Assembly (NCBI GenBank): GCA_023701005.1
Contig: JAMPXW010000003.1
Coordinates: forward strand, 9,148-73,147
Length of the DNA: 64,000 nucleotides
DNA from: Burkholderiales bacterium
GTDB lineage: Bacteria > Patescibacteriota > Minisyncoccia > Phycocordibacterales > UBA9973
Direction of reading: 5' to 3'
Of this stretch, positions 9,659 through 16,857 are shown piece after piece; positions within the stretch are counted from its first letter, which is position 1; every line of letters begins with the position of its first letter. The notes under the pieces were generated by a model, which did no database searches, had not been told where the DNA came from, and saw nothing but the letters and a program-made list of their open reading frames with translations. Made by a program: the position numbers and the translations under genes.

Positions 9659-10057
9659 TTAGTATTTAGAAGTAAAAGGATTTCGGTCAGAAAGTCCTTT
9701 TAGCATCTTTTTCACACTAGCTGCGCCTCTTCGAAACATCGTTTGTTTGCGATCTTTACTTCTTCTTATTTCTTCATAAAGCCTCTCTTTCACTTCATCG
9801 ACGGCTTGATAAATGTCTTCTTTGTCAGATCCATAATAAAACTTCTCGCCATTTATACTTATCAAACAATCTGCATGGAAAACATCTCCACTTTTATGAT
9901 GTTTAGTACTTTTTCCAACTTCAAAATTAGCTTTTATTTCTCCCCCACTCGTTTCAATATCAGAAAGTAATTTTTCTAAATTTGTCACTTTCTTTAAAAC
10001 ATATTCTGTTAAAGCTTCTGTAAGTTCAAAATTTTTACCTTGTAAATTTATATTCAT
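9659..10057 (-). CDS. hpf: ribosome hibernation promoting factor / ribosome-associated inhibitor (HPF/RaiA family)
   Basis: MNINLQGKNFELTEALTEYV N-terminus typical of sigma-54 modulation/HPF family plus C-terminal extension. Confidence 0.8.
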   Translation of the reverse strand: MNINLQGKNFELTEALTEYVLKKVTNLEKLLSDIETSGGEIKANFEVGKSTKHHKSGDVFHADCLISINGEKFYYGSDKEDIYQAVDEVKERLYEEIRRSKDRKQTMFRRGAASVKKMLKGLSDRNPFTSKY

Positions 10058-10096
10058 ATTTTTATATTAAAACTTATAATGTTAATAATAATCAAA

Positions 10097-12052
10097 CTAA
10101 TATTTAATACTATGCACTAAGGCCTTGAGAACAATATCGAATTCTATCGTAGCGACTCCGATAACTTTATCTCCTCCGCCATAATAAATATACAGCAGTT
10201 TATCCCCGCCTTGACTCGACGAGGCAGGTTTTACTATCATACCACAAGGAAAAACGACATTATTCACAATTCCTATTTTTTCATATTCCTCTTTTGGTTC
10301 AAATATAGGGTCAGAGCTTCTAGCGAGGACAATAGCCGGATCTTTCAAATCTAATAACAAAAATCCTGTTCTATAAGTATTATGACTTTTAGAAACCCCA
10401 TGATATAAAAGAAGCCAGCCGTATTTTGTCTTAAGTGGTGGAGCAGAGATACCTACTTTTGCACTATCCCAAGTGTTTATTCGGGGTCCTGCTATTCTAA
10501 TACATTTTTTTACCATCTCATGTTTAAAATCTAAAGTAGAAAGATAATCTCCACAAATTTCATTACCGACACGATGAATTATAAAATATCCAAGTGGAAA
10601 CTTTTCAGGAAATATACAAGCATCCTTATCATCTATCCCCTGCGGAGTGATAAGAAAAGGTTTTTCCCAATTCCATTTATTTGAAATAAAATCTTGTTCA
10701 GTAATAGATGATATGGCTACTCTAGGTGGAGAGATACTATCATAAGCTGTATAACATAAATAAATATTCTTCCCTATTTTTGTAAGCCTAGGATCTTCAC
10801 AGCCAGAATTAGAATTATTTACTTTTTTATTTTCAAAATCTTCTCTAGGTACATAAACGGGCATTTTTAATCTCTTATCTATTTTTGTACCATTTTTTGT
10901 CATAGCATAGCCCATAGTAGAAGTATTATCATTAGACATTGCCCTATATAAAATATGTATCTTCTTGTCCAACAAGATAGTGGCTGGATTAAAAGTAGCT
11001 AAAGATTCCCAAGCATTTTCTTTTTTAGGTGAAATAATTGGATTATTTTTAAATCTTTTCAAACTAAATTTCTCTTTATATTTAAAATGTATACTTTGAA
11101 TTAAGTCTTCGAGATTAACTTTCGCCAAACATACAGTAGCATCTGCTGCTCCATAATATAAATTTAAGGTTTTTTTATCGATGATAGCTCCAGTAGGAAA
11201 AACAATATTAGGAACATAGCCAGAAAGTTCATAATGTTCTAAAGGTACAAGTATCGGGCCTTCAGTCTTGCCAACAATCTTTCTAGGATTCTTCAAATCC
11301 AAAATTACTGTCTCAATACCAAATATTTTATCTAAATTACTAGAAGATGCAAAATAGTTCTGAATATGAGAATAAATAAATAGCCAACCATCTTTCGTCT
11401 TTATTGGAGGAGCACCCACTTCTATGTGGTCAGAAGGAAAACGCTTCAAATCGATAGCATAATCATCTACATTCTTTTCCCACTTATTCCAAAATTCTAC
11501 AGACCATAAATCTTCTATCCTATCTAACATCGCGAAGACAGTTTTTGATGGTGGAGAATCCGTATGATAAGAAAATACAACTACAATTTTCCCATTTATT
11601 CTCTCTGGGAAAAGGGCCATAGCTTTGGCATTAAAAGGTGTCACCAAATGTCTCTCTTTTATTTTGTTTAAATCATCTGAAACAGCTACCGCAACCTTGA
11701 TACCCTCTCTTGAAAAAGGATATTTTGAAAGTGCAGTATAAAAAGTATAAAATTTGCCTTCAAAAAATGTAACTCTAGGGTCTTCACAGCCAAATTTTTC
11801 CCAATCTTCTTTTGGTGTGATAAATGGTTTTCTATTTTTAAAGTTAATACCATCTTTACTCTCAGCGATCCCTATCACAGAATTTTGTCTAGGATTTTGC
11901 AAGACATCAACTGCAGATATCGCTCTGTAAAGTCCATATATTTTACCCTTATATTTAATTGGACAAAGATTAAAAGTAGCAAATTCTTCCCAGTAATGAT
12001 CTTCCTTTGGTATTAAGATTGGATTGTGTTCTGATCTTTTTACAACAAACAT
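10097..12052 (-). CDS. tandem-duplicated GH130-like glycosidase/phosphorylase (two beta-propeller repeats)
   Basis: two copies of NPIL..W(E)..ATFN(P)...YRA..., ...YYG(A/G)(A/G)D pattern (GH130/DUF377-like); carries family-1 GC-rich insert near C-terminus. Confidence 0.55.
   Translation of the reverse strand: MFVVKRSEHNPILIPKEDHYWEEFATFNLCPIKYKGKIYGLYRAISAVDVLQNPRQNSVIGIAESKDGINFKNRKPFITPKEDWEKFGCEDPRVTFFEGKFYTFYTALSKYPFSREGIKVAVAVSDDLNKIKERHLVTPFNAKAMALFPERINGKIVVVFSYHTDSPPSKTVFAMLDRIEDLWSVEFWNKWEKNVDDYAIDLKRFPSDHIEVGAPPIKTKDGWLFIYSHIQNYFASSSNLDKIFGIETVILDLKNPRKIVGKTEGPILVPLEHYELSGYVPNIVFPTGAIIDKKTLNLYYGAADATVCLAKVNLEDLIQSIHFKYKEKFSLKRFKNNPIISPKKENAWESLATFNPATILLDKKIHILYRAMSNDNTSTMGYAMTKNGTKIDKRLKMPVYVPREDFENKKVNNSNSGCEDPRLTKIGKNIYLCYTAYDSISPPRVAISSITEQDFISNKWNWEKPFLITPQGIDDKDACIFPEKFPLGYFIIHRVGNEICGDYLSTLDFKHEMVKKCIRIAGPRINTWDSAKVGISAPPLKTKYGWLLLYHGVSKSHNTYRTGFLLLDLKDPAIVLARSSDPIFEPKEEYEKIGIVNNVVFPCGMIVKPASSSQGGDKLLYIYYGGGDKVIGVATIEFDIVLKALVHSIKY
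10203..10232. repeat. GC-rich mini-element (family 1) copy, in-frame in GH130-like gene; encodes PASSSQGG
   Basis: tccccgccttgactcgacgaggcaggtttt, 30/33 identity to gap copy; the N-terminal repeat of the same protein lacks it. Confidence 0.6.
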
Positions 12053-12057
12053 AAATT

Positions 12058-13275
12058 TTATTCAAACTTAAATAATTTATTTTTTTCTAATTTTACAGAA
12101 TTATTTTTCACAATATCGTCCAATAAATCTGAAAGTTTAATAGAAGCGACACATACGACACTATCAGCCCCTCCATAATAAACAAAAAGTCTACCTTCTT
12201 TTACAACGGCACCACATGAATAAATAACACCTGATTTAAATCCTTCATTTTCATAATATTTATCTGGTTCTAAAATAGGACTTTGTGCACGATATAATAT
12301 TTTATTTGGATTTTTCAAATCTAAAATCATAGCACCTAGTTTATATCTATTTGGATCATTCTTATCCATAGCATGATACAAAACAAGCCATCCAAGATCA
12401 GTTTTTATTGGAGTAGGACCAACTCCTCTCACCCTATTGTCCCAAGAACTCTGCCAAGCTGGGGAAGAATTGTAATAACTTTTTATAAATTTTGAACCAT
12501 TAAACTCTGAAAAATCATCAATATAATCTATCAAAATTTCTGGAGAGATACTATGTAATATTGCAAATTTACCATTTATTTTTTCTGGAAATAAAACCCA
12601 GTTCTTATGAATTTCATTTGGAGGAGAAATCAAGATTGGTTTTTCCCAATTCCATTTTTTATTTTTAAAATCTTCTAATTTTATTGAAGTTAAGGCCATG
12701 CGCAAAGAACCCCATCCATCAAAAGCTGTATAAATAAGATAAACGGTATCGTCGATCAATGTAACTCGAGGATCTTCACAACCACCATTCCAACCACCAC
12801 CAGAAATATAATCTATAGGTTCAGTAGATTTTACAAATTTTACAGATTTTTGATAGATTGCATTTATTGGTCTTTCCATCAACCCATAACCATCCAAACT
12901 TGCTGCATATCCTAAGACAGACACATCATTGTCTCCAATAGCTCTGTATATAAGATGTATTTTTTGTCCATCAAAAAAAGCTGCTGGATTAAATGTGGCT
13001 TTTGATTCCCAAGAATACGGCCTTGGTTCTATTATTGGATTGTATTTAAATCTTTCGAGTTTTATTCCTTTTACAATCTTTGTTAATTTTTTAGAAATTT
13101 TTTTTATAACTTTCTTTTTTATTTTCTTTACAGGTTTTTTAACGATCTTTTTTGTTATTTTTTTTACTACTATTTTTTTACTTGTCGTTTTTTTTACAAC
13201 CTTTTTAATTGGTTTCTTCTTGGGGGCAACTTTTTTCTTTGGAATCTTCAATTTTTTCTTCAGTATCTTTACCAT
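12058..13275 (-). CDS. GH130-like glycosidase/phosphorylase with 70-aa Lys-rich (KKxx repeat) N-terminal tail
   Basis: YNPIIEPRPYSWESKATFNPAA...YYGGAD; N-terminus MVKILKKKLKIPKKKVAPKKKPIKK... Confidence 0.55.
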   Translation of the reverse strand: MVKILKKKLKIPKKKVAPKKKPIKKVVKKTTSKKIVVKKITKKIVKKPVKKIKKKVIKKISKKLTKIVKGIKLERFKYNPIIEPRPYSWESKATFNPAAFFDGQKIHLIYRAIGDNDVSVLGYAASLDGYGLMERPINAIYQKSVKFVKSTEPIDYISGGGWNGGCEDPRVTLIDDTVYLIYTAFDGWGSLRMALTSIKLEDFKNKKWNWEKPILISPPNEIHKNWVLFPEKINGKFAILHSISPEILIDYIDDFSEFNGSKFIKSYYNSSPAWQSSWDNRVRGVGPTPIKTDLGWLVLYHAMDKNDPNRYKLGAMILDLKNPNKILYRAQSPILEPDKYYENEGFKSGVIYSCGAVVKEGRLFVYYGGADSVVCVASIKLSDLLDDIVKNNSVKLEKNKLFKFE

Positions 13276-13290
13276 GTTATAGACATTATA

Positions 13291-13755
13291 CTACTTTTTT
13301 ATCTTCTTTGAATACTCCTTTAAAAGTTGCGAAGAGCTTCTTATTTTTCCACCCTTCCCAACATTAAAAACCATCTCTATACCTAATTTTTGACATATTT
13401 TATACTCTGCTTGAGGTAAATCATTGTCTTCCGGTTTTCTATCACCACCATTTGCAAATACGTGAGGTTTAATTTTTAATAACTCCTTACAAACACTAAT
13501 ATCCTTTGTATTTTTCTTATGACTAGATATCACAACTTCATCCACACATTCCAAAGCCTCTATGATCTCCCTGCGTTCATGGTGAGACATAAAAACAGGC
13601 TTACCTTTAACGTCAAACCAATTATCATTGTTTAAGATAACTATCAACTTATCTCCCAGTTTCTTTGCCTCCTGCATATAACGAATATGTCCAATATGCA
13701 AAGGATCAAACCCCCCACTAACTGCCACTATTTTTTGTTGTTTATTTTTTTTCAT
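13291..13755 (-). CDS. nucleotidyltransferase, HldE/RfaE domain II-like (ADP-heptose synthase / cytidylyltransferase family)
   Basis: VAVSGGFDPLHIGHIRYMQEAKKLGDKLIV ... ANGGD; start set at conserved MKKNKQQKIVAVSGGFD. Confidence 0.65.
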   Translation of the reverse strand: MKKNKQQKIVAVSGGFDPLHIGHIRYMQEAKKLGDKLIVILNNDNWFDVKGKPVFMSHHERREIIEALECVDEVVISSHKKNTKDISVCKELLKIKPHVFANGGDRKPEDNDLPQAEYKICQKLGIEMVFNVGKGGKIRSSSQLLKEYSKKIKK

Positions 13756-13759
13756 ATTT

Positions 13760-15466
13760 CTAATAAACTTCTTGTTGATAACATTTTTCACAATAAAGTA
13801 TTGGGGCATAATCCTCATTATAAACTGTCTCGACATCAATATTACATTTTCCACATTGTCTTTTAATAATTTTAAGCTTAGGACGTTTATTCATTCTTTT
13901 CCAATATCGAATATTAAAACAAACCCTAGGTAGTGGTAAGTCCATCTTGCGATAAAACTGTAATTCATTAGCGGTAATTCTAAAAGCTCCTGCAGATTCT
14001 AAATTATCTTTCTCCTCGCATTCTATCACTTCGTCAAGTATTGAATCATTAACCTCAGAAATAGTTTCTGGTAAGGTTCCCGACCTTAGTGTTATTTTAT
14101 AATTAATCTTTTCTTTATTTTTCCATTTATAATCCTTAAATAAAGCCTCTTCACGAGATAAAGCAAAATGATAATTAGCGATTGTCTCATTGTAAGCAAA
14201 ATCTGAAAATTCAACTGGAAAAAATTCACCAAAATAATATTTTATACCTCTCTTATCTACAAAAGGAACCTCCTTCATTTGCTTAATTATCTTTTCTTTT
14301 AGAATTTCATATTCTTCTTTTGAATATCTTTTATTTAAAATTGAATATTCTCCTTTTCTTAAACCAACACAACCAAAACAATTTCTAGCACCAGGGCAAG
14401 TATTACAATAATATAAATCAGTGGCTCCTGCCCAGCATTGATTACAAAAATATAATCTAGTTATATTTAAACCACAATTCACGGATTCATAAATTTGTTC
14501 AGCCTTATTTCCCCATTCATAATAATCCATACAATCTTCGGCCCCAAATACCATAAATAAATGTTTACCATCTTTTATTTCTATGCAATCGAAAGATTCT
14601 CGAACATTTTTACAATTTGAAAACCAATTACCAGAAACTTTTTCTGATTTTATGGTAGCCATACTTTTGATTGGAAACTTTTTTCGGAACACCTCAAAAT
14701 CTTTTTTCATTTTTTCTATTCCGGAATGTTTATTAAGGCTTAAATTTTTTAGTGTTTTAAAATATTCTTCTTTCGTATATTGTTTATTCCAAATACAATA
14801 CTGATTATTTACTAAATTTACACACGCGATACAATCTGAACAATTTCTACATGCATATAAAAAATAAGAATCTCGACAATCATTACTTTCCTGTCCAAAT
14901 TTTAGATTATAACAATTCTTAATATTTACACATTCATAACATATTTGTGAATCAAAAACCCATGAACAATCTATACAATTTTTAGAATATTTACCATTAT
15001 ATTCATACAAACAGTCTTCTGGATAAGTAGATCGAAATACCATAAAAGAATTCTTGGGACCAGTTACTCTATGAGTGTATGAGCTATTTATACTTTCCCC
15101 TTGTTTGACCAAAGACATTCTTGGTACTTTATTTTGAAGTTCAAAAAATTGCTCTAAAAATGGCCTCTCTTCATCAAAATCAATTCCATATTCATACGGG
15201 TCCCATTTGTCAGAATACCATTCATATGTTTCATACACAGGGAAAGATACATCAGATGGATACATACTAAAAATCTCTTTCCCAGTTAAATCACATTTCC
15301 TCTTATAAAGAACAACTTCGTTTGTCTGCGCAAATCTTCTCATCCTTCTACATCCTGGACAAAAAGTAGGTGGAGGAACTTTTATTTTCTCATAAAAATT
15401 AAAATCTTCTGGCTCTATAATAAAGTCTTGCTTGCAGTTTTGACAATTTCGAGTCTCTGTATTCAT
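13760..15466 (-). CDS. cysteine-rich protein of unknown function (zinc-ribbon-like termini, internal CxxC ladder repeats)
   Basis: ~45 Cys; N-term NCQNCK...FCPGCRRMRR, C-term QCGKCN...YCEKCY, internal CIDCSW..CYECVN..CRNCSDCIACVN; first gene of operon with 13291-13755 and GH130 genes. Confidence 0.5.
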   Translation of the reverse strand: MNTETRNCQNCKQDFIIEPEDFNFYEKIKVPPPTFCPGCRRMRRFAQTNEVVLYKRKCDLTGKEIFSMYPSDVSFPVYETYEWYSDKWDPYEYGIDFDEERPFLEQFFELQNKVPRMSLVKQGESINSSYTHRVTGPKNSFMVFRSTYPEDCLYEYNGKYSKNCIDCSWVFDSQICYECVNIKNCYNLKFGQESNDCRDSYFLYACRNCSDCIACVNLVNNQYCIWNKQYTKEEYFKTLKNLSLNKHSGIEKMKKDFEVFRKKFPIKSMATIKSEKVSGNWFSNCKNVRESFDCIEIKDGKHLFMVFGAEDCMDYYEWGNKAEQIYESVNCGLNITRLYFCNQCWAGATDLYYCNTCPGARNCFGCVGLRKGEYSILNKRYSKEEYEILKEKIIKQMKEVPFVDKRGIKYYFGEFFPVEFSDFAYNETIANYHFALSREEALFKDYKWKNKEKINYKITLRSGTLPETISEVNDSILDEVIECEEKDNLESAGAFRITANELQFYRKMDLPLPRVCFNIRYWKRMNKRPKLKIIKRQCGKCNIDVETVYNEDYAPILYCEKCYQQEVY

Positions 15467-15510
15467 GCTTAAATTATAAGCCTTTCATGAGATTAAAGCA
15501 AAAAATATAA

Positions 15511-15981
15511 ATGTCTGTTATAATTTATTTTATGTATATAATATATGCTTTGTTGGGTGCTATAATGGCTAGCCTTGGCACAATATTTGCCAAATTAGGA
15601 TTAAAAGGAGTAGACGCAAATATGCTCACAGCCATCCGTGGCATAGTGATGGCTCTCATAGTTTCTATCGCTGCACTATCATTAGGTAAATTGAATATAA
15701 CAGCCCTTTCTTCCCTTTCTGCAAAACAATGGATCTTTGTCATTTTGTCTGGATTGGGAGGAGCTTTGTCTTGGATTTTCTTTTATCAAGCACTATCTGT
15801 TGGCCCCACTGTCGCTGTGACAGTGATCGACAAATTGTCTATCACATTTACCGCTATTTTGGCTGTTGCCGTTTTGTCTGAAGGAATAACTTTACAAGCA
15901 AGTATTGGTTTAGCTTTCGTTGTATTAGGGACACTTCTCGTAGCTATCCCTTGGGAAAAAATTCAAAAACTTTTTTCCTAA
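15511..15981 (+). CDS. small EamA/DMT-family membrane protein (4 TM)
   Basis: hydrophobic 156 aa, EamA-like half-transporter pattern. Confidence 0.45.
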   Translation: MSVIIYFMYIIYALLGAIMASLGTIFAKLGLKGVDANMLTAIRGIVMALIVSIAALSLGKLNITALSSLSAKQWIFVILSGLGGALSWIFFYQALSVGPTVAVTVIDKLSITFTAILAVAVLSEGITLQASIGLAFVVLGTLLVAIPWEKIQKLFS

Positions 15982-16020
15982 AAAGAAGATACTATAAATC
16001 AATTTCTATCATCTTATATC

Positions 16021-16177
16021 AAAAAAAAACATAAAGATAATTTTTAGAATGCCTTGCGCAGAAGCTTAGAAAATAAAAATAGTATTCTATTTATTATTTT
16101 CTTGAGCGGCGAGCAGTTCGCTAGCGAAGCTTCGCTAGATAGATTGCATTATAAAAATTGATCTTTATGTTTTTTGA
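16021..16177. repeat. MITE-like element: ~16-bp terminal inverted repeats flanking GC-rich palindromic core
   Basis: aaaaaacataaagat (16024-16038) vs atctttatgtttttt (16161-16175); core contains perfect palindromes ttcgctagcgaa and tagcgaagcttcgcta; lies between convergent genes. Confidence 0.45.
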
Positions 16178-16182
16178 TTCTC

Positions 16183-16857
16183 TTATTTAATTAAGAAACT
16201 CATTGTGGAGACTAAACGTATCTTTTTATATTCAGGTGATCCTGGATCCTTTTCTGAAATATCAAACACTCCTTGATTACCACGATGTAAGCCACCCAAG
16301 CTAGACCCTGTTTCCCCAGCTATCTTTTGAGCAGTATCTTTTGCATTCTTGAGAGCTTCAGCCAACATTTCTGGCTTTATTGTATTTATGTCTGAAAATT
16401 CAAAAGAAACAGAATTTTGATTCATTACAATTCCATTCTTTATTAATACTAAAGTATCTTTTGAAACTGATTTTATCAAATCAACTTTTTTAGTATAAAC
16501 AGAAAGTTGGTTTGTAGAATTGTATCTAAACAATGCATCTTTGTAGGTATCTTGATATATATTTACTGGTGCGACATTTATTTCAGATTCTTCAAAACCT
16601 TTCTCTTTCAAGAAAGCTTTGATAGTAGCTATGTTTTTACCAATATCAGCATATAAAGAATCAACATTATTTGATTTAACTTCAAAATTGATTGACCAAA
16701 TAGCTGTATCAGCTTTTACTATTCTCTCAGACAAACCTTTGACCTCTACATAAGAACCTTGTTTTGAAAAGTTTTGTGCAGCAAGGAAAAATATTGCTGA
16801 AAAAACCAAAACACCTAAACCTATAACCCACACATTGTAATTTTTTGTATTTTCCAT
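16183..16857 (-). CDS. SIMPL/DUF541-like secreted or membrane-anchored protein
   Basis: N-terminal TM then beta-rich region; weak family resemblance only. Confidence 0.35.
   Translation of the reverse strand: MENTKNYNVWVIGLGVLVFSAIFFLAAQNFSKQGSYVEVKGLSERIVKADTAIWSINFEVKSNNVDSLYADIGKNIATIKAFLKEKGFEESEINVAPVNIYQDTYKDALFRYNSTNQLSVYTKKVDLIKSVSKDTLVLIKNGIVMNQNSVSFEFSDINTIKPEMLAEALKNAKDTAQKIAGETGSSLGGLHRGNQGVFDISEKDPGSPEYKKIRLVSTMSFLIK

Follow-up and report, generated by a model that had tools for sequence, protein, structure and literature searches.

A very large Patescibacteria protein family with predicted terminal zinc modules, a cysteine-lined solenoid and family-level linkage to VirD4-like ATPases

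The stretch of DNA analysed here (hereafter the window) spans 64,000 nucleotides of contig JAMPXW010000003.1 (assembly GCA_023701005.1) and carries on its minus strand a cysteine-rich gene whose product of 568 amino acids (aa) belongs to a very large, unnamed family of proteins specific to the Patescibacteria. Sequence comparison and structure prediction support an architecture marked by internal duplication, in which predicted treble-clef zinc-binding modules at both ends enclose two narrow beta-solenoids, and across the family the genes are linked to VirD4-like ATPases and to the Hsp70 locus. We tentatively propose that these proteins could be cytoplasmic, zinc-stabilised scaffold or adaptor repeat proteins, which would act with the VirD4-like ATPases in an ATP-driven module for handling proteins or nucleoproteins.

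Family extent and domain architecture

A preliminary description of the gene, made from the sequence alone, had reported a 568-aa protein with about 45 cysteines at positions 13760-15466. The gene is real, being an open reading frame (ORF) on the minus strand with an ATG start and a TAG stop, and the motif strings quoted in that description all occur in its product, but the cysteines number 33 (5.8%). The protein contains 12 CxxC motifs (overlapping count) where 1.84 +/- 1.28 are expected, a number reached by none of 20,000 shuffles. Seventeen cysteines fall in aa 152-224 and 285-366, and paired CxxC knuckles are found at both ends (C8/C11 with C36/C39 and C538/C541 with C559/C562). Neither a signal peptide nor a transmembrane segment was found, which strongly supports a cytoplasmic location.

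Comparison of sub-alignments with hhalign pairs aa 3-83 with aa 478-563 (probability 99.7%, E 1e-26) and aa 119-242 with aa 269-393 (probability 99.9%, E 2.5e-37). Based on these two pairings, an internally duplicated layout A-B-B'-M-A' is well supported at the level of sequence, as follows.

13760..15466, minus strand: complete ORF of the cysteine-rich gene (568 aa, then the TAG stop), assigned to a tight orthogroup with 60-86% identity
15113..15466, minus strand: domain A (aa 1-118), predicted treble-clef zinc module followed by helices; homologous to A'; modelled by AlphaFold2 (AF2) with a predicted local distance difference test (pLDDT) of 95-99; PF13451 match in family members
14681..15112, minus strand: module B1 (aa 119-262), predicted beta-solenoid lined with Cys and Ser, its coils of about 12 residues including CRNCSDCIACVN; cap motif YCIWNKQYTKEEY, with two helices after it
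14267..14680, minus strand: module B2 (aa 263-400), in which the predicted solenoid recurs, with long hairpins, 12-residue coils, the cap YSILNKRYSKEEY and a helix; pLDDT 81-98
14036..14266, minus strand: region M (aa 401-477), highly conserved segment GEFFP..S.FAYNET.A..F..L...EA...Y.W, then a variable linker
13763..14035, minus strand: domain A' (aa 478-568), C-terminal copy of A; first site half-degenerate, with C483 and C516 kept and S491 and I519 in place of Cys

Four parts have a family-wide information content of 2.1-2.7 bits per column, namely the zinc domains, the late coils and their caps (YCI.NKQYSKEEY), the M segment with its GEFFP..SPF.YNET.A..YFPL, and the extreme C-terminus (CYxxEVY-COOH); values are 1.6-1.8 bits per column in the early coils, the inter-module helices and the linker. 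Within region M the mean is 2.54 bits for aa 401-449 versus 1.79 bits for aa 450-477, and N378 of module B2 is invariant. The zinc domains, the late coils and caps and the M segment are conserved in every paralogue, and variation lies in the early coils and the linker helices.

Pfam and PDB-sequence searches with the window protein alone gave no matches, and NCBIfam gave only a chance-level match to NrdI (E 0.91). A profile search of the PDB yielded only an insignificant LIM/CRP match (E 0.03), which pairs the C-terminal site with the second LIM finger of CRP proteins, a search with the B1 segment alone found nothing, and PADLOC assigned the window protein to no defence family. The preliminary description had been unable to name a family and had proposed a hidden Markov model search; that search has been run and the verdict holds, in that no characterised family was found for the whole protein. 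Nor was a published description found in the literature on the family, on its Pfam modules, or on links of candidate phyla radiation bacteria to type IV coupling proteins and DnaK. The whole protein, a putative zinc-capped solenoid scaffold, fits no described family, and its parts relate to known kinds: the terminal modules are distantly related to established treble-clef families, and the predicted solenoid is a familiar type of fold in an unusual form that is very narrow and lined with Cys.

Relatives are nevertheless abundant. More than 6,281 homologues were found among clusters at 90% identity, and the best 120 are full-length, 62-100% identical and, where named at all, called "hypothetical protein", a label carried by every family sequence in these searches. 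A profile search of 1.84 billion representatives recovered 4,516 clusters (50% identity) at E<=1e-3 and 1,903 at E<=1e-30, and nearly all of these family members are 550-600 aa long. The present analysis provides these roughly 4,500 clusters of sequence dark matter with a domain layout and a structure predicted with confidence. Every one of the best 80 loci in GTDB species representatives comes from the Patescibacteria (Nomura-, Pacei-, Staskawicz-, Jorgensen-, Sungii-, Lipton-, Abawaca- and Peribacteria) or from an unclassified metagenome-assembled genome (MAG). Many tiny Patescibacteria genomes hold several 1.7-kb copies, and as many as six complete ones can occupy 14 kb. Since the orthologues are as conserved as housekeeping proteins, the family is probably important to Patescibacteria biology.

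The close homologues and syntenic loci of the window are all Patescibacteria (Nomurabacteria-like) and its G+C content is 29-40%. Consequently, the Burkholderiales label of the assembly is probably a binning error, the contig having been mis-binned. An identical protein (P0001) is deposited as "MAG: Burkholderiales bacterium NDI62_02995". A mobile-element origin was also considered and rejected: tblastn gave no matches in 72,556 plasmids and 50,697 phages, and one marginal fragment in IMG/VR. One relative of 731 aa (P0200) carries an N-terminal GNAT acetyltransferase domain (PF00583, 3e-08) ahead of the family region, which is present in full length; this may reflect either a genuine fusion or a merge made in gene calling and, as a single case, was not used.

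Predicted zinc modules and the interior cysteine ladder

Each A domain is able to hold two sites of four cysteines (Cys4), a zf_Tbcl-type CxxC-x24-CxxC followed by a CxxC-x17-CxxC. In the window protein and its orthogroup two of the four sites are degenerate, leaving one intact Cys4 site per terminal domain. Cysteine quartets were counted in 430 non-identical family sequences.

15350..15445, minus strand: predicted Zn(Cys)4 site 1 (C8, C11, C36, C39; CxxC-x24-CxxC, zf_Tbcl type), CCCC in 402/430
15221..15295, minus strand: second site of domain A, degenerate (aa 58-82), in which C58 alone is left; T61, E79 and E82 replace the other Cys of CxxC-x17-CxxC
13781..13855, minus strand: predicted Zn(Cys)4 site 2 (C538, C541, C559, C562; exact CxxC-x17-CxxC), CCCC in 415/430, followed by the family-wide C-terminus CYxxEV(Y)

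The second N-terminal site reads CCCC in 114 sequences and Cxxx or xxxx in 304, while the first C-terminal site loses its cysteines mostly in pairs (CCCC 228, CxCx 127, Cxxx 59). Among 85 family members scanned against Pfam and NCBIfam, 27 match PF13451 and 40 match PF23477, with TIGR04272 matching at the same positions, mostly below the curated cutoffs (24 bits for PF13451, 27 bits for PF23477, 36 bits for TIGR04272). Only P0166 passes the PF13451 cutoff among individually scanned members (26.6 bits), the individually scanned relatives reach at most 26.4 bits for PF23477 and 22.9 bits for TIGR04272, and the window protein itself lies below every reporting threshold for all three models (no PF13451 match at E<=1). 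The geometry agrees with these remote matches: the AF2 model places a helix (aa 37-45) after the second knuckle of C8-x2-C11-x24-C36-x2-C39, which fits the treble-clef layout of PF13451, and C538/541/559/562 reproduce the exact C-x2-C-x17-C-x2-C spacing of TIGR04272/PF23477. Foldseek against BFVD returned only local matches to the zinc modules, which superpose on phage "putative zinc-ribbon domain" proteins with a deviation of 0.6 A over 40-44 residues.

Because the four cysteines of a quartet are kept or lost as units and because of the remote matches to PF13451 and PF23477/TIGR04272, the terminal quartets are read as zinc sites, and an assignment of the terminal domains as treble-clef zinc-binding modules is well supported by sequence comparison; the zinc-ribbon-like ends of the preliminary description thus stand in a more precise form. 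The window protein presumably binds zinc. For the CxxC-x17-CxxC domain, zinc has been measured by inductively coupled plasma mass spectrometry in two small proteins of Methanosarcina mazei (PMC12704099). The likeness to PF13451 (zf_Tbcl) and to PF23477 (zf_Tbcl_2)/TIGR04272 lies in the cysteine spacing of the terminal domains, whereas these models cover only modules of about 40 residues, less than 30% of the window protein. The cysteine-rich (CxxCxGxG) zinc domain of DnaJ and the LIM domains are likewise Cys4 zinc modules, and the family is associated with dnaK and dnaJ in genomes, but no DnaJ_CXXCXGXG match was obtained, the LIM match is not significant, and the architecture is unrelated to both.

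The interior cysteines follow a different rule. Across the family, the frequency of Cys in B1 is correlated at each multiple of three residues (r 0.39-0.64) and anticorrelated otherwise, giving the repeat pattern (C/S)-x-(N/D)-C-x-x-(S/C)-x-x-(L/S/C)-x-x. AF2 with 146 diverse sequences produced a model with pLDDT 91.8 and a predicted template-modelling (pTM) score of 0.91, with local values of 68-79 in B1 and 81-98 in B2; with 36 close orthologues, pLDDT fell to about 30 in the cysteine-rich zones (aa 121-209 and 270-351). DSSP places strands exactly 12 residues apart in both modules (189-192, 201-204 and 213-216 in B1; 349-352, 361-364 and 373-376 in B2). The model and the periodicity give good support to a reading of each B module as a narrow beta-solenoid with coils of about 12 residues, in which every third residue, usually Cys, Ser or a small hydrophobic residue, is predicted to point inward. 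The preliminary description had left open whether the ladder forms a beta-helix or metal clusters; structure prediction favours the beta-helix. Weak matches to the Med15 KIX domain (20/85 members) on the cap helix after B2 were judged spurious.

No significant match to the model was found with Foldseek in the PDB. The best weak ones are all beta-helices (LpxA, LpxD, GlmU and gamma-carbonic anhydrase; template-modelling (TM) scores of at most 0.21), and that left-handed beta-helix acyltransferases and gamma-carbonic anhydrases are the only folds topping the list fits a solenoid-like local geometry. Homology to the hexapeptide-repeat beta-helices is another matter, with E-values of 1.6e-3 or worse, TM-scores of 0.06-0.21, root-mean-square deviations above 7 A, no Hexapep match in Pfam, and a coil of 18 residues with period 6 as opposed to 12 residues with period 3. 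The antifreeze protein of the beetle Tenebrio molitor is a narrow, disulfide-bonded, extracellular beta-helix with 12 residues per coil, and it resembles the model of the window protein in having strands every 12 residues and an inward small residue or Cys at every third position. It differs in that the window protein has no signal peptide, no cysteines conserved as disulfide pairs and no TxT ice-binding face, gives no sequence or Foldseek match to it, and has its solenoid set between zinc domains.

The same cysteines could in principle ligate metal, making the protein a redox protein with Fe-S or multi-zinc, metallothionein-like clusters held by ladders such as C206-x2-C209-x2-C212-x2-C215. 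The 17 cysteines in the two interior zones would suit this, as would the CxxCxxCxxC quartet itself, which reads CCCC in 293/430 relatives with each Cys 79-94% conserved. Losses at this quartet are, however, mostly of single cysteines (105 sequences), far exceeding joint losses, with Ser, Leu or Val instead, and only 26-76% of sequences have Cys at the equivalent positions of the duplicated module B2. More generally, conservation at the interior cysteine positions is 16-94%, and substitutions by Ser, Val or Leu affect one position at a time, in mosaic patterns. The motifs CxxCxxCxxxCP and CxxxCxxC are absent, neither the window protein nor the 85 relatives matches a ferredoxin or radical-SAM model, and a strict period-3 placement over about 100 residues suits the inward-facing positions of a solenoid. 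A metal-cluster protein is consequently very unlikely. Since the interior cysteines vary singly and not as quartets or pairs, the interpretation of the ladder as core packing, and not as an obligate Fe-S, multi-zinc or disulfide array, is well supported.

Paralogue arrays, VirD4-like ATPases and a candidate function

In 55 of the 84 loci seeded with the family, two to six copies stand in tandem on the same strand. Pairwise identities are bimodal, at least 60% within the window's orthogroup and 30-45% for all other pairs. As identity between tandem neighbours has a median of 41% and does not exceed 61%, the tandem copies are, from their sequences, ancient paralogues.

A cluster of P-loop ATPases is the most frequent neighbour other than family members (25/82 loci), followed by DnaK/MreB-type proteins (16) and DnaJ (10). 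The ATPases match TrwB_AAD_bind, T4SS-DNA_transf, TraG-D_C, DUF87/HerA and the TraD/VirD4 models of NCBIfam, are predicted from sequence to be soluble, and come in two sizes of about 700 and 500 aa. The larger one carries a finger of the type found at the termini of the family, with scores well above the cutoffs (42-49 bits for PF23477, 51 bits for TIGR04272). The smaller one is 70-91% identical across most aligned loci and 63% in the most divergent. With about two VirD4-like genes per genome of about 1 Mb, we estimate that a 14-kb interval would contain one by chance in about 3% of cases; 30% was observed.

Two gene orders recur (FAM, family copy; ATPase700 and ATPase500, the two ATPases): (grpE-FAMn-)dnaK-ATPase700-FAMn-ATPase500-dnaJ, and (secD-secF-sigma70_r4/HARE-HTH-)450-aa single-pass membrane protein-ATPase-FAMn. 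The window protein has orthologues in the arrangements grpE-FAM-FAM-X-dnaK...ATPase700 (L010, L170) and ATPase700-FAM-X-ATPase500-dnaJ (L007). The association was also examined in reverse, with 80 metagenome loci seeded by an alignment of the ATPase, of which the 52 of at least 8 kb were counted. The family is present in 38 of these 52 loci, a proportion (73%) valid for that ATPase subfamily only, the seeds having come from family-adjacent genes. At least two family copies were found in 28 loci, two ATPases in 31, the membrane protein in 19, dnaJ in 18 and dnaK in 12, with the genes almost always on one strand. Gene order and frequency together strongly support a linkage of the family to VirD4-like ATPases and the Hsp70 locus.

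Some features of these loci deserve mention on their own. In many Patescibacteria (L007, L029, L049, L060, L081, L087-L104, L144 and L170) the heat-shock locus is split, with grpE, dnaK and dnaJ separated by the two soluble ATPases and the arrays of cysteine-rich genes. The membrane protein, 450-470 aa long with one N-terminal transmembrane helix, recurs upstream of the VirD4-like ATPase (L012:2642-3994, L066:2729-4138 and 19 of L086-L165), matches nothing in Pfam, NCBIfam or PADLOC, and often has a conserved gene of about 182 aa nearby; it might anchor a split coupling protein in the membrane. The ATPases match mad8 in PADLOC over part of their length (E 1e-12 to 1e-14) and HerA models weakly; a defence-island reading was rejected, the other neighbours being housekeeping genes (cysS, dnaB, recR, rplU, arginase).

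Type IV coupling proteins (VirD4/TraD/TrwB) thus provide the closest known counterpart of the family's commonest non-self neighbours, which lie on the same strand and often few nucleotides away. Unlike coupling proteins in their usual modules, these ATPases are soluble by prediction and lie inside a grpE-dnaK-dnaJ locus, and no virB4, relaxase or channel gene was found among the neighbours of the ATPase and family loci. A survey from 2025 counted 5,713 VirD4-like genes in 2,918 Patescibacteria genomes, of which 148 lie near virB4, and raised exaptation as a possibility (PMC12102498). Such orphan ATPases, present in most Patescibacteria genomes and far from type IV secretion genes, now gain a candidate partner.

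Our proposal for the function of the family combines a common handle, variable faces and the ATPase linkage. The conserved parts, namely the zinc "handle" and the M segment, would dock to a common partner, most economically the soluble VirD4/TraD-like ATPases, one of which shares the CxxC-x17-CxxC finger. The variable faces of the solenoid would then give each paralogue its own binding specificity, so that the family would form a repertoire of adaptors or scaffolds (cargo being less likely) for the ATP-driven handling of proteins or nucleoproteins. The window copy would be the most conserved and usually single-copy member, one that has drifted from the ATPase cassette. A broader suggestion, possible and on the doubtful side, is that family arrays, two soluble ATPases, membrane protein and Hsp70 proteins constitute a hitherto undescribed "coupling-protein-only" machine specific to the Patescibacteria and independent of a type IV secretion system (T4SS), with the paralogues as its specificity adaptors or its cargo; if true, it would account for the roughly two orphan coupling-protein genes per genome (PMC12102498).

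Several points weigh against this proposal, at the level of both structure and genomic context. The confidence of the B1 model is modest (pLDDT 68-79, and about 30 with the shallower alignment), the 12-residue coil geometry is deduced from DSSP spacing and sequence periodicity and not from model coordinates, and the zinc sites are predicted ones. The link to the ATPases is one of guilt by association, and its frequency in the reverse comparison was obtained with seeds taken from family-adjacent genes. None of the 99 family copies in the ATPase-seeded loci belongs to the window's orthogroup, just three of about 17 orthologue loci (L007, L010, L170) lie in a chaperone/ATPase cassette and five lie after frr-rseP, and the 64-kb window contains no such ATPase, dnaK or dnaJ. 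As the ATPase link of its own orthogroup is weak, the functional inference for the window gene rests on family membership.

Other readings would account for part of these data. The proteins might bind RNA or DNA independently of the ATPases, with the Arg-rich treble-clef helices making contact and the solenoid serving as a spacer or mimic. Conserved basic motifs do flank both zinc sites (CPxCRxxRR...RN and CxxxRxxxR), treble-clef and CxxC-x17-CxxC fingers in general often bind nucleic acid, and several orthologues lie among translation and replication genes (frr, rluA, holB, scpAB). TFIIB-like fingers have been discussed in this context (PMC12704099). However, the domains carry almost no net charge overall (A -5, A' +1), no known nucleic-acid-binding domain was detected, and neighbourhoods in reduced genomes consist mostly of housekeeping genes anyway, all of which makes a stand-alone nucleic-acid-binding factor unlikely. 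Alternatively, the members could be the cargo, exported or translocated by the VirD4-like ATPase and its membrane partner as surface proteins or host-directed effectors, possibly stabilised by disulfides outside the cell. Arrays of many diversified paralogues beside coupling-protein-like ATPases would be expected on that account, and the recurrent upstream membrane protein, the secD/secF genes of one cassette and the invariant position of the extreme C-terminus could be taken the same way, as could the resemblance of a 12-residue, Cys-lined coil to extracellular disulfide-bonded beta-helices such as the Tenebrio antifreeze protein. Yet, unlike fast-evolving effectors, the family has strong conservation within orthogroups (60-86% identity) and ancient paralogues; stable zinc modules at the ends and a tight solenoid are, on general grounds, poorly suited to translocation that depends on unfolding; the cysteines are not lost pairwise as disulfide partners would be; and the surroundings are housekeeping genes with no T4SS channel gene or relaxase nearby. 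We regard cargo as quite improbable, and retain the scaffold or adaptor repertoire as our tentative preference.

The cytidylyltransferase and GH130 genes of the window

The preliminary description had placed the gene at the head of a glycan-type operon, in which it would overlap an HldE-like nucleotidyltransferase gene by a few nucleotides and, with two GH130-like genes on the same strand, take part in sugar activation or transfer. Pfam and NCBIfam matches bear out the identity of these neighbours.

13291..13755, minus strand: cytidylyltransferase-like gene (RfaE domain II-like), PF01467 9.8e-14; TIGR02199 2.3e-21, far below the equivalog cutoff
10097..13275, minus strand: two GH130 genes, one of 405 aa (12058-13275, 4.4e-46) and one of 651 aa with a double GH130 (10097-12052, 1.5e-91)

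The overlap itself disappears on inspection. The TAG stop of the cysteine-rich gene (13760-13762) is followed after 4 nt by an ATG at 13755 that opens MKKNKQQKIVAVSGGFDP (MKKNKQQKIVAVSGG...). The cytidylyltransferase family matches begin at residue 34 (TIGR02199) and residue 46 (Pfam), and translation most likely starts at this ATG; the reported overlap arose because the first GTG upstream had been chosen as start codon, an artefact of ORF calling, and the genes are therefore 4 nt apart. No terminator-like site was found on the minus strand between the two genes, so that co-transcription of the cysteine-rich gene with the downstream block is plausible in this genome. On the other side, 44 bp (15467-15510) separate the start of the cysteine-rich gene from a divergent gene for an EamA half-transporter, which leaves very little space for two promoters.

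Conservation of this block across genomes is another question, and the co-occurrence check proposed in the preliminary description speaks clearly here: just 2-3 of the 84 related loci have a GH130 or cytidylyltransferase gene within 6 kb, such neighbours are confined to a small group of closely related members, and the block is absent beside most orthologues. At the locus of the nearest orthologue (86% identity) the genes run SIMPL-EamA-X-paralogue-200 aa gene-cytidylyltransferase-GH130-GT4, and the GH130 there is only 28-31% identical to that of the window. In L042 and L051, compared with window positions 9659-16857, the flanking genes (EamA, SIMPL, GH130, HPF) are 70-87% identical and the same slot is filled by one to three paralogues about 40% identical to the window protein, which points to turnover of paralogues at a fixed locus. 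L019 keeps the flanking synteny and has no GH130 block. Other orthologues follow frr-rseP (in five loci) or rluA, or lie between scpAB-adjacent paralogues or between grpE and dnaK. Given these differing contexts, the 4-nt junction with the cytidylyltransferase and GH130 genes appears to be a recent, lineage-specific juxtaposition.

An accessory role in a sugar-activation or glycan pathway, in which the protein would be co-transcribed with these enzymes and act on or scaffold the pathway, would draw on the spacing in the window (4, 15 and 5 nt, on one strand, with no terminator-like site between) and on the presence of the block downstream of a family member in the locus of the nearest orthologue, in L042 and in L051. 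Its distribution across genomes largely refutes it. The nearest orthologue has a paralogue and a 200-aa gene intervening, a different GH130 and a GT4, the slot in L042 and L051 holds distant paralogues, L019 has no such block, and no sugar- or nucleotide-binding domain was detected in the window protein. We consider such a role extremely unlikely, and a misleading annotation lead, the "glycan operon", is removed.

The GH130 genes have peculiarities of their own. At its N-terminus the 405-aa GH130 (12058-13275, minus strand) has an extension of about 65 residues in which nearly every residue is Lys, Val, Ile or Pro (KKKLKIPKKKVAPKKKPIKKVVKK...), a feature seldom expected of GH130 phosphorylases. 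The 651-aa ORF (10097-12052, minus strand) contains two complete tandem GH130 domains, seen as two Pfam stretches, which with the previous gene makes three in a row.

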